DNA of 64,000 nucleotides from Minisyncoccota bacterium. Lineage in GTDB: Bacteria > Patescibacteriota > Minisyncoccia > Phycocordibacterales > PALSA-1337. The DNA is taken from the NCBI GenBank assembly GCA_041665325.1, contig JBAYJB010000004.1:1048-65047 (forward strand), given 5' to 3'. Position numbers and translations under genes: made by a program. This document shows positions 14,693 to 25,637 of the stretch, piece by piece; the first letter of the stretch is position 1, and each line of letters opens with the position of its first letter. The notes under the pieces are model-generated. The model ran no database searches. It saw only the letters and a list, made by a program, of their open reading frames with translations, and was not told where the DNA came from.

Positions 14693-14861
14693 AAAAGCCC
14701 CCGAAGGGGCGACTGTGTTACCACTAACATTAGGTCCGGTCTACCAGCCGACATTAATCGACTAAATAAGTTTACGCCCAATTGCACGGTTGTCAATTGT
14801 AGACACGACGGGAAATGTTTAAGAAGTTATGAATAAAAGTTAAAATAATTATGAAGATTTT

Positions 14862-14903
14862 TTGGGCAAAAAAATGGCCCCAGGATCAGAAGATCCCGGG
14901 GCC
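14862..14903 (-). terminator. Strong intrinsic terminator (minus strand)
   Basis: Reverse-strand GGGCCCCGGGATCTTCTGATCCTGGGGCC followed by ATTTTTTTGCCC. Confidence 0.75.
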
Positions 14904-15262
14904 CTAACATCTAACTTTTCAGAAGCTTTTGGCTTATGGATGCGCGCGCATCCGAGTGATTGTTCCCAGATAAATGTCTCTGTGGAGTTCCCTGCACTCA
15001 GCCGACAGGGAAAGCTTGTCTTTTATTCTATTTCCCAAAACCAGTGTTGACGATATTGCTTTCAGATTCTCGTCTACAAAGGTCTGGTAAGACACATTAC
15101 TAACGCGATATTACGCCGCCTGCTCGTATGTGACAAGACACAGGGGCATCGCATCAAACATCTAACCGTTTACGAAGAACTAACGAATCTAACTCCCTAA
15201 CAAGTTGCCAACAGTACCTAGGTACATCAGGATCGTAGCCTCTATCACCACTTCATCCTGAC
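14864..15262 (-). ncRNA. Candidate structured ncRNA of unknown family (about 400 nt), bounded by a consensus promoter and a terminator and lacking any ORF
   Basis: An extended -10 promoter lies at 15269-15296, a terminator at 14862-14903, and there is no ORF longer than 16 codons on this strand. Internal hairpins are present, e.g. TCAGGAT...ATCCTGA and the palindrome GGATGCGCGCGCATCC. Confidence 0.45.
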
Positions 15263-15268
15263 TAGACC

Positions 15269-15296
15269 AGTATAGCACACTCATTAGTTTTGTCAA
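15269..15296 (-). promoter_or_regulatory. Near-consensus sigma-70 promoter with an extended -10 element (TTGACA-N16-TGcTATACT) on the minus strand
   Basis: Reverse strand reads TTGACAaaactaatgagtgtgcTATACT. Confidence 0.6.
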
Positions 15297-15371
15297 GTAC
15301 AATTAAACTTTGTATGTTTCATGGCTAAAAGAAGCCTAAAATAAGGGTTTTTAGGACATCTGATTTGTGAT

Positions 15372-15402
15372 TACAAAAACAGCCCTTATTCAGGGCCGCT
15401 TT
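15372..15402 (-). terminator. Intrinsic terminator just after the rpoC stop codon
   Basis: Reverse strand: GCCCTGAATAAGGGC followed by TGTTTTTGT. Confidence 0.6.
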
Positions 15403-15426
15403 TGTGCTTATAAAATACTGATTTTT

Positions 15427-22100: not shown

Positions 22101-22320
22101 CGCCGAACTTGGGCGGGATGACTTCGAGGCCGCCGAGCGAGAGCTCGAACTTCTTCTCGGCATAGTCCTTGATCGGAGAGAATTCCTTGAGGAGGTTCGG
22201 CATCCCCTTCTCAATGAGCGAAGTGAAAGAGAGGAGCTGGGACTCGACCAGATGCGGCATCTCCGTGAGCGGTTCCTGATACTTGGAGAAATATTTCTTG
22301 GGACGGGCGGCGGTAGTCAT
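19132..22320 (-). CDS. rpoB: DNA-directed RNA polymerase subunit beta
   Basis: 1062 aa with conserved RpoB blocks (e.g. GEMEVWALLGHGAAHTLRE near the C-terminus), located directly upstream of rpoC. Confidence 0.98.
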   Translation of the reverse strand: MTTAARPKKYFSKYQEPLTEMPHLVESQLLSFTSLIEKGMPNLLKEFSPIKDYAEKKFELSLGGLEVIPPKFGEHYAKDNKLNYEGQIKIKVTLKNKSLNVVKEQEIFLADLPFMTDHGTFIVNGVERVIVPQLARSFGIFFTATEVKGRNYFGAKIIPARGVWMEIETDADGTIYCRIDRKRKFPVTSLIRVLGADTNQAILDLFKGNDIATKSIELTLAKDHAKTIPEAYIEIHKRLRDGDLATAENARSFITAILHHDRYDISRVGRFRFNKRFAKPMDEKALERRTLSLDDIATAISHIIMLNATPDMQADDIDHLGSRRVRYIGELLEQRIRLGLSQMKRNIQDKMSTIEPDITMPVSFIYPRPLQARIKEFFTTNQLSQFMTQENVLAEVENLRTLTALGPGGLSRDRAGFEVRDVHPSHYGRLCPIHTPEGPNIGLVLRLTTYAHINDFGMIETPYAKVKDGKITKEILYLNALEEENYRIAHAATPRQADGTLIGDDIEVRRNGKPDLAKTTEVDFIDVATDQAFSIATSLIPFLNHDDANRALMGSNMQRQATPCLVPEAPFVATGIEAKAVLDTGRVVVAPEDGEIVSVDARKIIFQGDKKGSKKHEYPLVLFQRTNGFTAFHQRPIVSVGDKVKKGDILADTSTSDQGQIALGHNALIAFMSWSGNNYEDAIILSERVVQNSKWSSIHIEEFVVNVRDTKLGPEITTCDIPNIGEVKLKNLTEEGIIRIGAEVRPGDILVGKISPKGETQLTPEERLLRSIFGEKARDVKDTSKRMENGKRGRVISVKIFSRERGDKLESGIIKKIYIEVAEVRNISVGDKMAGRHGNKGVISKILPVEEMPYMEDGRPIDVILTPLGVPSRMNLGQILELHLGLAANALGYQAIVPPFTGATDAEIKQELVKAGFDASGKMKLRDGRTGEHFHQPVAVGYMYIMKLHHMVEDKIHMRSIGPYSLITQQPLGGKAQGGGQRFGEMEVWALLGHGAAHTLREILTVKSDDIIGRSQTFDAIVKGEKLRAPNLPASFNVLLKTLRGLALNVELISKSKIVSEE

Positions 22321-22552
22321 TTTTTTTGATAAATTATTAAATGGTAGTGGCTCGGCTCTTGGTCAAGACTAGATCGAAACGCACAAAAACATAAAATCCG
22401 CTCTCTTTATTTTGAGGGCGGCCAAAAAGCGCTTTTTATTATGAATGGTTGATCAAGGGTAGGAGTGATCGAGCCGTTGTAATCCTCCGCTAGGGCAGAA
22501 CTCAATCTGCGAAGTTAGGGAGAGCCTAGCAGAAGGGCTCTATTACGTCAAG

Positions 22553-22581
22553 TTGACTTATATCAGTAAACATGATAATAT
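22553..22581 (+). promoter_or_regulatory. Near-consensus sigma-70 promoter TTGACT-N17-TAATAT (plus strand), divergent from the rpoB upstream region
   Basis: TTGACTtatatcagtaaacatgaTAATAT. Confidence 0.55.
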
Positions 22582-22845
22582 ATATCTTATATTGGATTTT
22601 TGACATACAGCCTGTCACCAAGGCTCCTTAGGGAATTATCCCAAGTGTGAACTAGTCCGTGAGACTGTGGATAATCCACATGAAAAAAACATACCGTGAA
22701 AGGGACGAGGGAGTTAACCGCTGGGGCAGGACTCCGACGACCAACACGATGGCTAGATAGATGAAGATCACCGCCACTATCCGATGGATACGCAAACGCT
22801 CTTCCTCACCTTCGTAAATTCCTAAGTGATTTCACCTGGGAGTTT

Positions 22846-23094
22846 GTGTATGGATCTTCAGATGATCAGGCAGTTGAATTGGTTCGGAGGTCAGATTATG
22901 TCTGGCTCGCCCAACCAGGCTTAGATGTCAGCATGGGATTGGTTACTGCAGTGCGTAAAAATCTTAGCGGCCAAAAGGCACGTGGAATCGCCTACTTCCC
23001 AACCGCCGACATAGGTGAGATCGAGATCTGCTGGCCAGTCGAAGCACTCCGCGGGGGAGGTTGCCGGATATTGGCAGACGACCGGTTCTTGTAA
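22846..23094 (+). CDS. Small hypothetical protein (82 aa) inside the roughly 560-nt promoter-to-terminator unit; it could instead be part of a ncRNA
   Basis: GGGAG lies 7 nt upstream of the ATG and a terminator follows 23 nt after the stop; there are no recognisable motifs. Confidence 0.35.
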   Translation: MYGSSDDQAVELVRRSDYVWLAQPGLDVSMGLVTAVRKNLSGQKARGIAYFPTADIGEIEICWPVEALRGGGCRILADDRFL

Positions 23095-23116
23095 CACCTT
23101 CAAATGTAACTCGGGG

Positions 23117-23146
23117 CGCCTAAGCGATTAGGCGCCCTTTTTTGTT
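23117..23146 (+). terminator. Intrinsic terminator (plus strand)
   Basis: GGCGCCTAAGCGATTAGGCGCC followed by CTTTTTTG. Confidence 0.75.
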
Positions 23147-23153
23147 GGAGAGA

Positions 23154-23567
23154 TTATTTGCTAGTCAGTTTAGAAACAACCGATGTTAGATTGCCCACCC
23201 TACCAATCAAACTTTCCACTTTTCCAGTAAGGAAAACTACTCTGGTTATGATGCTCTCAGTTTTTTCATTGATATCTTCGATTCTATTATAGTCCTTGTA
23301 TGTCTTAACAGAGCCATGCTCATTGGTGATCACATACTCCAAGGTTTTAACATCCCCGTTCATCTGCCTCAAGATACGCAGAATAGCGTTATGGAACTTC
23401 TTTTGGAGCCATTCCTGAGTAAATGAATTAGGAACACCGATGTAAACAATGCCATCTTCCTGACGCAGGATTGAAGTATCTTTGAACCACGTGGAAAAAT
23501 TGGCTTGTGAGACGGCACTCTCAATCTCTAGCAGGGCTGTTTCCCACATTTTTGCTGTATCAATCAT
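23154..23567 (-). CDS. Standalone DnaA N-terminal (domain I)-like protein, 137 aa, with no AAA+ or DNA-binding domains
   Basis: MWETALLEIESAVSQANFSTWFKDTSILRQEDGIVYIGVPNSFTQEWLQKKFHNAILRILRQ follows the DnaA domain-I pattern (W..L..L...F..W......L..VPN.F...W....Y). The C-terminal 55 aa are unrelated to DnaA. Low GC. Confidence 0.6.
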   Translation of the reverse strand: MIDTAKMWETALLEIESAVSQANFSTWFKDTSILRQEDGIVYIGVPNSFTQEWLQKKFHNAILRILRQMNGDVKTLEYVITNEHGSVKTYKDYNRIEDINEKTESIITRVVFLTGKVESLIGRVGNLTSVVSKLTSK

Positions 23568-23964
23568 GAGGTGTGGAGTTATCTCTTAATAGCTCTTTCT
23601 TAAAATCATCCATGTATTTAGTGAAGTAGTCCTGATCTAGCTTTCTGTCTAGTTTCTTATCTAGTTCTTTTCCAAACGCGATAAAACTATTGTTTACGTA
23701 CTTTTCCATCGCCTCAAAACCTTCACTAACACGAACGTCCAATTGATCGAAGCGCACTTCTAGATCATTAAAACGTCCGAAAATAAAAGTGAAATTCTGA
23801 TGAACATTCTTGAAACACTCATCAACGGTCTTAAAATTAGCATCGATAGTCTCAAACCACCCATCCGCGGTTTGAAAGCTTTGTTCTATGCGAGACTCAA
23901 ACCCTTGAAACTCTTTCTTAGTAACTGGACTGGGATACAGTGGAGATATAGTCATAGTACTCAT
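23560..23964 (-). CDS. Hypothetical protein (134 aa), helical/repetitive, overlapping the DnaA_N-like gene by 8 nt (co-transcribed)
   Basis: The ORF overlaps the downstream gene, has low GC, and contains periodic F/L/V repeats. Confidence 0.5.
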   Translation of the reverse strand: MSTMTISPLYPSPVTKKEFQGFESRIEQSFQTADGWFETIDANFKTVDECFKNVHQNFTFIFGRFNDLEVRFDQLDVRVSEGFEAMEKYVNNSFIAFGKELDKKLDRKLDQDYFTKYMDDFKKELLRDNSTPHD

Positions 23965-24121
23965 CAGTAAAATGATTAAAGATTATTAAATTCACACTCA
24001 CTCCACAGAGATGCGGGACTTCTAAACGTATGTCCCGCCAATTAAGATTTATTGTTAGAGCCATTTTACCAAACAGAAGAAGCAAGCTGCAAGCTCACAA
24101 GCATTAAAATTCGTGTCTTAA

Positions 24122-24808
24122 TTATTTCCTGCCCTTCAACTTCCACTCATCTATCTTTTTGTGGTCTCCTGTTAAGAGGATTTTTGGCACTTTGTATTTT
24201 TTTCCTTTGTATTCGATGACTTCCGGGCGAGTGTAGACATCTGAGCTGGATATGCGATTTTCCTCAACTGATGAGTCGTGCCCGAGAACCCCTGGAATCC
24301 TACGGGTAATAGCATCTATGACGATCATGGCCGGCAGTTCCCCACCAGTTACGACGTAGGGCCCGGTAGAAATATCAACCATTGGGAATACTTTTTTAAT
24401 CCTGACATCAATACCCTCATAGCGGCCGCAAACCAGAACAATGTCCGTGAATTTCTTGAATGAATCGGCGGTAATATTTGAGAACTCCTTACCAGCCGGA
24501 CTAAAGAACACGATCTGAACTTTCTTTTTGGATTTAGCTGATTTTAATTTGGCGCCAACGGCTTTCTCAATAGCCTTAATCACTGGAACAGCCTCAATGA
24601 CCATTCCGGGCCCTCCGCCATATGGACGATTATCAACTCGGCGGTCAGCATATGATGGAGACTTCCCTTTCTTGACCGTCACGAAATCACGCGGATTATA
24701 GTACTTAACCGCTATATGCTTCTCCTTTTGCGCACGACCGAGAATAGAAGCGCCAAGATATGACTCTAGGGATTCTGGGAAAAGCGTGATGATATGGAAG
24801 GTGATCAC
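24122..24808 (-). CDS. trmD: tRNA (guanine37-N1)-methyltransferase TrmD
   Basis: SPOUT-fold TrmD with conserved blocks, located in the rpsP-KH-trmD cluster. Confidence 0.92.
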   Translation of the reverse strand: MITFHIITLFPESLESYLGASILGRAQKEKHIAVKYYNPRDFVTVKKGKSPSYADRRVDNRPYGGGPGMVIEAVPVIKAIEKAVGAKLKSAKSKKKVQIVFFSPAGKEFSNITADSFKKFTDIVLVCGRYEGIDVRIKKVFPMVDISTGPYVVTGGELPAMIVIDAITRRIPGVLGHDSSVEENRISSSDVYTRPEVIEYKGKKYKVPKILLTGDHKKIDEWKLKGRK

Positions 24809-25149
24809 AACTTGAGGTCAGCCATAGCTTCATCAACAGACTTGGAAGCCGAAGCGGCCGAGACCGGAACCGGAGGCGCCATGCGCTCGGCTGACTTGAG
24901 TCCGCCAATCGGCTCATTGATCTTGAGATTGACGCGGCTATTGTTCTTCATGCCGACGACGCGCAGGAGCGTGCGGATGGACTTGGCGGTATTGCCCTGG
25001 CGGCCGATGATCTTGCCCATGTCGGCGGCCGAACATTCGAGGGTGAGCAGGACCCCCATCTCATCTACTGTGCGCACTGTCTTGACTTCATCTGGACTGT
25101 CTACTAACGCCTTCACAACATACTCTAGGAATTGCTGATCTGTATTCAT
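24805..25149 (-). CDS. KH-domain RNA-binding protein (YlqC-like)
   Basis: The GxxG KH motif IIGRQGNTAKSIR, plus the conserved position between rpsP and trmD. Confidence 0.8.
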   Translation of the reverse strand: MNTDQQFLEYVVKALVDSPDEVKTVRTVDEMGVLLTLECSAADMGKIIGRQGNTAKSIRTLLRVVGMKNNSRVNLKINEPIGGLKSAERMAPPVPVSAASASKSVDEAMADLKL

Positions 25150-25235
25150 ATATTCGTATAGACTAACTTTTAATCAGTACTGGCATTCGATACCGTACTA
25201 TCGGAATTGTAGCGAGACGCGCAGCGGGCGTCAAT

Positions 25236-25637
25236 CTAAGCTGTGACAGGAGCGGCCTCGGCTTTTGCCTCTTCTTTGGCGGCGGGAGCTTCGGTTGGTG
25301 CGACGGCAGGAGCAGTCTGGGCGGCGGCGGCCGGAGCGGCGGCTTCTTCCTTCTTGATCGGCTTCTTCTTGGGGAGAGCGTTGAGCTTCTTGCCCGAGAT
25401 TACCTTGTGATTCACGAGGAAATTGTGAAGAGTGAGGGAGAGCTTGGCGCCCTTGGACATCCAGCCCTTGATCTGCTCGATATCAAGCTGATCGACAGTA
25501 TTCTTGCGGCGGGTATCGTACCAACCGAGGTTGCTCAAGTACTTGCCGCTCTTGGGGCCGTTCTTGGAATCAGTCAAAACCACACGAAAAGTCGGTTCGT
25601 GTTTGCGGCCTGTGCGTTGCAAGCGGATCATTAACAT
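25236..25637 (-). CDS. rpsP: 30S ribosomal protein S16 with an Ala/Pro/Lys-rich C-terminal extension
   Basis: MLMIRLQRTGRKHEPTFRVVLTDSKNGPKSGKYL is a typical bS16 N-terminus. Confidence 0.93.
   Translation of the reverse strand: MLMIRLQRTGRKHEPTFRVVLTDSKNGPKSGKYLSNLGWYDTRRKNTVDQLDIEQIKGWMSKGAKLSLTLHNFLVNHKVISGKKLNALPKKKPIKKEEAAAPAAAAQTAPAVAPTEAPAAKEEAKAEAAPVTA

Follow-up and report, generated by a model that had tools for sequence, protein, structure and literature searches.

A probable decaying accessory gene in a variable slot between trmD and rpoB of a Paceibacteria genome

Directly upstream of the rpoBC promoter of a Paceibacteria (Patescibacteria/CPR) genome, a stretch of about 600 nt (22553-23146, plus strand) is bracketed by a promoter-like site and a terminator and holds an 82-codon ORF in its 3' half. 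What does such a unit encode? An earlier note on the same DNA had offered a long structured leader controlling a small protein, a dual-function RNA or a non-coding RNA with a spurious ORF. We consider it probable that the unit is a pseudogenised accessory gene of the P0029 type in a variable slot, P0029 being a protein of 159 aa. Coordinates refer to the window, that is the whole 64-kb stretch analysed here, which ena:ERZ27249449:k141_377210 matches at 100% identity. NCBI assigns one of the window's proteins to Candidatus Paceibacterota.

Signals at both ends of the unit

Eighty related genomes, whose rpoB is 69-86% identical, share the order S16 - KH - trmD - gap - rpoB - rpoC, with all genes on one strand. 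The gap measures 1.8 kb in the window and is filled by a coiled-coil ORF (23560-23964), an ORF with a DnaA_N domain (23154-23567) and the unit, whose ends are marked as follows:

22553-22581, plus strand: promoter-like site, TTGACT (22553-22558), 17 nt, TAATAT (22576-22581), with 9 of 12 matches
23113-23146, plus strand: intrinsic terminator, stem-loop 23113-23138 with 11 pairs (7 G-C) and a 4-nt loop, T-run to 23146

Both ends of a sigma-70 transcription unit, a consensus promoter on one side and a hairpin followed by a T-tract on the other, were found where the earlier note had read them (promoter at 22553-22581, clean terminator at 23117-23146). However, the promoter-like site is statistically unremarkable and its match occurs at chance frequency, with five such sites in 2.4 kb versus 4.0 ± 2.0 in shuffled sequences. 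It carries an upstream TG at 22573-22574 (TG-n-TAATAT), and direct reading of the sequence places its -35 element only 1 nt from that of the divergent rpoB promoter. Judged by these motifs, the site may function as a promoter and the unit may be transcribed from it. The terminator is strong and oriented for the plus strand, and it faces, in convergent orientation, the DnaA_N-domain gene, whose end lies at 23154.

The locus of the P0029 gene (L165), which belongs to a related Paceibacteria genome, shows the same layout of leader, ORF and terminator in the same place, which bears out the earlier proposal of a discrete transcription unit on the plus strand. There, a scan found the equivalent terminator directly after the P0029 stop. 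TTGACT-N17-TAGAAA is readable in the L165 sequence, at a site that the promoter scan did not flag. The two -35 elements lie about 30 nt apart in L165, whereas they abut in the window.

ORF82 and its single homolog

The coding sequence of the unit comprises two overlapping features:

22846-23094, plus strand: ORF82, 82 codons with a GTG start, the largest translatable remnant of the gene
22783-23079, plus strand: homology to residues 58-154 of P0029 (99 aa aligned, 40% identical), with the first 21 codons upstream of any usable start

As a gene in its own right, ORF82, which is present as first described, gave weak signs. Gene calling on the full-length contig reported no gene at its position, the codon score of -0.007 was intermediate (0.22 ± 0.13 for real genes, -0.11 ± 0.20 for spurious ORFs), and a word-index search among 5.8e9 proteins returned no homolog. 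An exhaustive phmmer search of 1.84 billion (1.84e9) representative proteins yielded a single credible homolog, P0029 (159 aa, E 5.1e-11, 43% identity). The 2269-aa repeat protein P0030 (E 5.4e-11) was treated as an artefact, its score being the sum of nine weak repeats at 25% identity. P0029 is a hypothetical protein from contig Ga0451576_0000110 of JGI 3300045051, encoded at 8001-8480 of L165, and is itself a singleton, as a word-index search with it matched P0029 alone. Pfam, PHROGs and PADLOC gave no match for ORF82, its 109-aa extension or P0029, and an AlphaFold2 model of P0029 from the two-sequence alignment was unusable (pLDDT 47).

The homology is not confined to ORF82. A tblastn search with P0029 against the unit alone aligned 99 aa at 40% identity (E 5e-26). 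The match sets in 21 codons ahead of the GTG at 22846, in a frame that stays open over 22765-23094 and offers no ATG, GTG or TTG before 22846. Instead of being spurious, ORF82 is homologous to the C-terminal two thirds of the 159-aa P0029. The gene map of L165 and a nucleotide alignment of the whole spacer place P0029 and the unit in the same neighbourhood, slot and orientation. In L165, the order is rpoC - rpoB (minus) - 392 nt - P0029 (plus) - trmD ... KH - S16 - response regulator; that is, P0029 is located between the rpoB promoter and trmD, on the strand opposite to rpoB and with its own terminator. The rpoB proteins of the two genomes are 87% identical, and 56% of the 4-fold sites of rpoB are the same. 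Conservation of the peptide was found in part: it has this one homolog in the same slot, but blastn and tblastx of the spacer against the rpoB loci of the 80 relatives matched only 22454-22553, comprising the rpoB promoter and leader, and not the unit.

Over 97 aligned codons between the ORF82 frame and P0029, pN was 0.41 and pS 0.81 (saturated), and pN did not differ between ORF82 and the 21 codons that precede its GTG. Since pN is equal on both sides of the GTG while pS is saturated, the whole frame would have been constrained at the protein level for most of the divergence. The substitution pattern indicates past purifying selection on the whole frame, and to this extent the selection that the earlier note had thought worth looking for is visible; a dN/dS ratio is not quantifiable in this two-sequence comparison because dS is saturated.

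Might the shortened gene still work? An 82-aa protein could be made from the GTG at 22846 by way of a 5' UTR of about 255 nt. ORF82 keeps the core SDYxWL...SMG...EIxICWPxEAL...GCR, the best-conserved blocks of the family fall within it, its frame is open from 22765 on, and both the promoter-like site and the terminator are intact. Yet the homology continues upstream of the GTG for 21 codons that contain no start codon. The GGGAG at 22838-22842, previously taken for the ribosome-binding site, belongs to the codons TGG-GAG (Trp-Glu), whose Trp is conserved in P0029, and ends 3 nt ahead of the GTG, which is a poor Shine-Dalgarno spacing. Direct reading found no counterpart in the window for the N-terminal residues C14, C36, H37 and H38 of P0029. 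Together with the codon score and the absence of a gene call, these observations make a functional truncated gene unlikely.

The same GGGAG stands 7 nt ahead of an ATG at 22850 (plus strand), out of frame with ORF82, and thus at a better Shine-Dalgarno spacing than for the GTG at 22846. This ATG opens a 24-aa ORF (22850-22924, MDLQMIRQLNWFGGQIMSGSPNQA), which is probably a product of chance, since GGGAG is coding sequence of the ancestral gene.

Lesions and the conserved leader

Upstream of the homologous region, three further features were identified:

22608-22679, plus strand: conserved 5' UTR of the ancestral gene, 72 nt with three small hairpins
22680-22760, plus strand: remnant of the ancestral start, with the ATG at 22680 aligned with the P0029 start
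22762-22764, plus strand: in-frame TGA, a stop within the frame of the conserved C-terminal region

The first 250 nt or so of the unit had been described as free of ORFs, and indeed none longer than 33 aa exists on the plus strand between 22585 and 22845. However, the stretch is not non-coding by origin: from 22680 onward it aligns to the coding sequence of P0029. The nucleotide alignment placed the ATG at 22680 opposite the P0029 start (MKKTYRERDEGVNRW in the window versus MNKKPWDYEAVTW in P0029). In the frame translations, the frame of this ATG runs for 26 codons to a TAG at 22758-22760. A deletion of about 49 nt with a frameshift lies between about 22700 and 22730, and the nucleotide alignment with L165 shows gaps of 49 nt and then of 9 and 13 nt in the window after the start. 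A frameshift-aware protein-DNA alignment begins at 22680, requires a single frameshift and runs across the TGA at 22762. Counted from ATG to stop, the window copy is 65 nt shorter than P0029. The placement of gaps in the N-terminal region is uncertain, and protein similarity there is weak outside the first 15 or so codons. Recoding of TGA was considered and discarded; 10 of the 45 long ORFs in the window end in TGA, which is therefore an ordinary stop rather than a sense codon. On these alignments, most of the supposed ORF-free leader appears to be the wrecked 5' half of a gene, and a riboswitch-like leader of some 250 nt gives way to decayed coding sequence with a retained ATG, a deletion and a TGA.

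The window copy and P0029 share 40% identity over 99 aa, slot and strand relative to rpoB, a conserved 5' UTR, an aligned start and a terminator at the end of the gene, which in L165 follows the stop. They differ in that the ORF of P0029 is uninterrupted over 159 codons, whereas the window copy is frameshifted and interrupted by TGA. Since the frame of the ATG at 22680 ends after 26 codons and the copy has a frameshift and an in-frame TGA, the window copy is the pseudogene member of this family of two. The unit is an ordinary broken member of a two-sequence family of hypothetical proteins.

The course of decay can be sketched as follows. The intact ancestor would have consisted of a promoter, a structured 5' UTR, a P0029-type ORF of 159 codons and an intrinsic terminator, divergent from the rpoB promoter. 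The window copy appears to have kept the promoter-like site, the leader, the start codon and the terminator. A deletion of about 49 nt soon after the start would have shifted the frame, smaller deletions would have followed, and the TGA would interrupt the conserved frame; owing to the frameshifting deletion and the TGA, the ancestral ATG would now yield only a 26-aa peptide. The C-terminal two thirds would be translatable, if at all, only from the GTG at 22846, as an 82-aa fragment lacking conserved residues. A transcript may still be made, most likely without function and at most as a useless mRNA. The lesions are probably recent, since the whole frame would have been under constraint for most of the divergence. 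Some points speak against a pseudogene: with a single homolog, the ancestral state rests on a two-sequence comparison, and the signals look intact, with the 21 upstream codons as conserved as the rest. Intact signals and conserved upstream codons would fit a very recent inactivation, and would also fit continued use of the transcript.

The lesions might instead be errors of one metagenome assembly, or reflect a mixture of strains in which the gene is intact in the population. A second, independent assembly of the same strain (L082, Logan SRR6484324) corresponds to window positions 22771-25590. It ends close to the TGA, and the stretch with the lesions (22700-22764) is therefore covered by one assembly only. 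Nevertheless, gaps of 49, 9 and 13 nt together with a nonsense codon are unlike short-read assembly errors, and the 2820 nt common to both assemblies are 100% identical, so that we regard an artefact as very improbable. The boundary of L082 at 22771 lies next to the TGA and the deletions, at a distance of a few bases, and may itself mark strain variation at the lesion site. Gene calling on L082 returned a partial gene of 107 aa for the open frame.

Ahead of the ancestral start, the leader at 22608-22679 aligns without gaps to 7926-7997 of L165 with 53 of 72 nt identical (74%). For comparison, identity was 56% at rpoB 4-fold sites, 42-53% in flanking non-coding DNA and 50% in the coding region. 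One of the 17 predicted pairs in the leader shows a compensatory change (U-A to A-U in hairpin 1) between the two sequences compared. The folding z-score was -3.5 for the L165 leader and -1.8 to -2.0 for that of the window, while the z-score of the whole unit (-1.9) was marginally better than shuffles and uninformative. The segment is a short conserved and probably structured 5' UTR; in the intact form, the 5' UTR measures roughly 75-90 nt.

Known RNA families did not account for the unit. With Rfam 15, no family matched at gathering thresholds across the whole window, or at E <= 10 for 22320-23200 and L165, apart from terminator-like noise, and ARAGORN detected no tRNA or tmRNA in the region. 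The earlier note had pointed to motifs reminiscent of RNase P RNA. Short strings resembling AGUCCG and GUGAAAGGG indeed occur about 45 nt apart; the first motif, GUCCGUGAGACUGUGGAUAAUCCAC, sits within the hairpin region of the 5' UTR (22608-22679), and the second, CCGTGAAAGGGACGAGGGAG, corresponds to codons 5-11 of the ancestral ORF. In contrast to bacterial RNase P RNA, however, 22320-23200 has no match to an RNase P covariance model even at E <= 10. Riboswitches and other long structured leaders resemble the unit in that the ancestral ORF follows a conserved 5' UTR rich in hairpins. They differ in that only about 72 nt are conserved here, the rest of the proposed leader being decayed coding sequence, and in that the unit belongs to no Rfam family, lacks a ligand-related gene context and shows no convincing covariation.

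A role at the RNA level could nevertheless be envisaged, either with the 72-nt leader as a new regulatory element (a 5' UTR that binds a ligand or protein) or with the transcript retained, for instance for interference with the rpoB promoter. The higher identity of the leader compared to adjacent non-coding and coding DNA (about 50%), its three hairpins with one compensatory change, the folding of the L165 copy and the abutting -35 elements of the unit and rpoB are all consistent with this reading. Against it, two sequences offer only one compensatory pair, neither copy matches Rfam, the window leader folds less well, and the sequence beyond 22680 is explained by decayed coding sequence. Moreover, two related loci (L083 and L085) have the promoter and leader of rpoB but lack the 72-nt element, which argues that rpoB does not need it. 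We consider such a role quite unlikely. The leader is conserved between two genomes with saturated synonymous sites. The more specific proposal that it is a new cis-regulatory RNA serving a protein family specific to Paceibacteria, with a transcript retained after loss of the ORF that acts at the RNA or transcription level on the abutting rpoB promoter, is decidedly unlikely.

An ORF on the opposite strand was also considered:

22652-22795, minus strand: hydrophobic 47-aa ORF with a TTG start and GAGGA 7 nt upstream

It could encode the membrane toxin of a type I toxin-antitoxin system, with the plus-strand transcript as antisense RNA. One clear hydrophobic helix flanked by Arg and the Shine-Dalgarno-like GAGGA are in line with such a toxin. 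A conserved hydrophobic ORF was not found, though: L165 has no counterpart, and its 45-aa minus-strand ORF is unrelated and not hydrophobic. The ORF also has no minus-strand terminator downstream and lies antisense to decayed coding sequence, in which ORFs should arise by chance, so that a toxin is extremely improbable.

The trmD-rpoB slot and its surroundings

Across 55 species (loci L001-L078; 22321-24121 in the window), the gap between trmD and rpoB ranges from 183 to 5017 nt. The commonest size, about 250-400 nt, is taken to be the ancestral state. Part of the gap in the window varies among close relatives:

22558-23131, no strand assigned: variable segment; L085 has 497 unrelated nt in its place, and L083 just 10 nt

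L083 (rpoB 90% identical over 186 aa) has the order trmD - coiled-coil gene - DnaA_N gene - 10 nt - TTGACA-N17-TAGGCT - rpoB leader; the 600-nt unit is simply absent. In L085, the closest relative found, the alignment to the window runs to 23132 and restarts from 22557, with flanks of 93% and 98% nucleotide identity. The 497 unrelated nt in between carry, on the same strand as the unit, a promoter, a 129-aa ORF and a terminator. The promoter reuses the shared TTGAC (22553-22557 in the window) as its -35 element, the ORF has weak VpsR/receiver-like similarity and is unrelated to the gene of the unit, and sequence reading showed that this gene, too, ends in a GC-rich hairpin and a T-run. The borders of the replaced segment are sharp, one inside the promoter -35 and the other at the terminator. 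Three further loci (L002, L003 and L067) contain unrelated opposite-strand ORFs of 166, 162 and 158 aa in the spacer, of which we take the 158-aa ORF, by eye, to be NYN-like; the genes inserted here in relatives often run opposite to rpoB. Presence, absence and replacement among relatives suggest that the unit sits in a slot where single accessory genes turn over fast.

Bacterial pseudogenes and gene remnants occur in chromosomal hotspots for accessory genes. The unit resembles them as a patchy accessory gene at a fixed spacer between core genes, present, absent or replaced among close relatives and decayed in one copy. It differs from them in its sharp borders and in the absence of an integrase, repeat or mobile-element signature. 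No other copy and no terminal inverted repeats were found in the window, and a MITE or IS was discarded as the window holds no such repeats. A phage or plasmid fragment was likewise rejected: a DNA similarity search matched no phage or plasmid record, and viral contigs gave no match to two leader patterns or in a protein alignment. We therefore favour none of these elements; the gene would be decaying in a fast-turnover slot between trmD, here with the inserted DnaA_N-domain gene, and the rpoB promoter.

A candidate non-coding RNA or riboswitch in a CPR genome became a probable decayed ORFan gene once one distant ortholog was found. In streamlines of this kind, among streamlined genomes, a promoter-to-terminator unit free of ORFs can thus be a recent pseudogene, and a fast-turnover slot for accessory genes is documented here directly upstream of the rpoBC promoter in Paceibacteria.

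A more promising object for follow-up than the unit itself lies on the other strand:

22437-22553, minus strand: rpoB promoter and leader, TTGACG (22551-22546), 17 nt, TAGGCT (22528-22523), then a leader of roughly 95 nt

In 39 Paceibacteria loci, rpoB is preceded by this conserved leader, which has the pattern AACUUCGC...GAUUGWGUU...GCGGAGGAUUA...UAAUCCUACCC. Helix P1 (CUUCGC/GCGGAG) is paired in 93% of cells, with changes on both sides in five of six pairs, and helix P3 (GGAUUA/UAAUCC) in 89%, with changes on both sides in all five; a proposed helix P2 (67% paired) is poorly supported. The covariation score of 0.278 compares to 0.147 ± 0.011 in shuffles (none of 500 scored as high) and to 0.03-0.09 in slid registers, in an alignment that was fitted to the model and so favours the structure. 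Rfam gave no match at E <= 10 in 22320-23200, and in the literature on rpoB leader motifs in Patescibacteria we found no description of an rpoB leader. The segment is thus a new candidate for a leader that regulates rpoBC in cis.

On the other flank of rpoBC, the earlier note had seen a second orphan unit (14693-15426) and had found the pair striking. A link between the two did not emerge: blastn and tblastx detected no similarity of 14693-15426 to any related locus fetched, and no part of the 22553-23146 unit recurs in the window. The region lies downstream of rpoC and contains only ORFs of 65 aa or less; in L165, dnaG follows rpoC after 190 nt.

The neighbour of the unit, on the minus strand at 23154-23567, encodes a 137-aa protein with a DnaA N-terminal domain and a short coiled-coil tail. 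It overlaps the gene at 23560-23964 (minus strand) for a 134-aa coiled-coil protein, which is DUF16-like in L083. The DnaA_N part is up to 80% identical to the start of the true DnaA proteins of relatives, and L083/L084 and L085 have the same pair of genes at this spot. The DnaA_N gene looks like a duplicated 5' end of dnaA that has turned into a small gene family.
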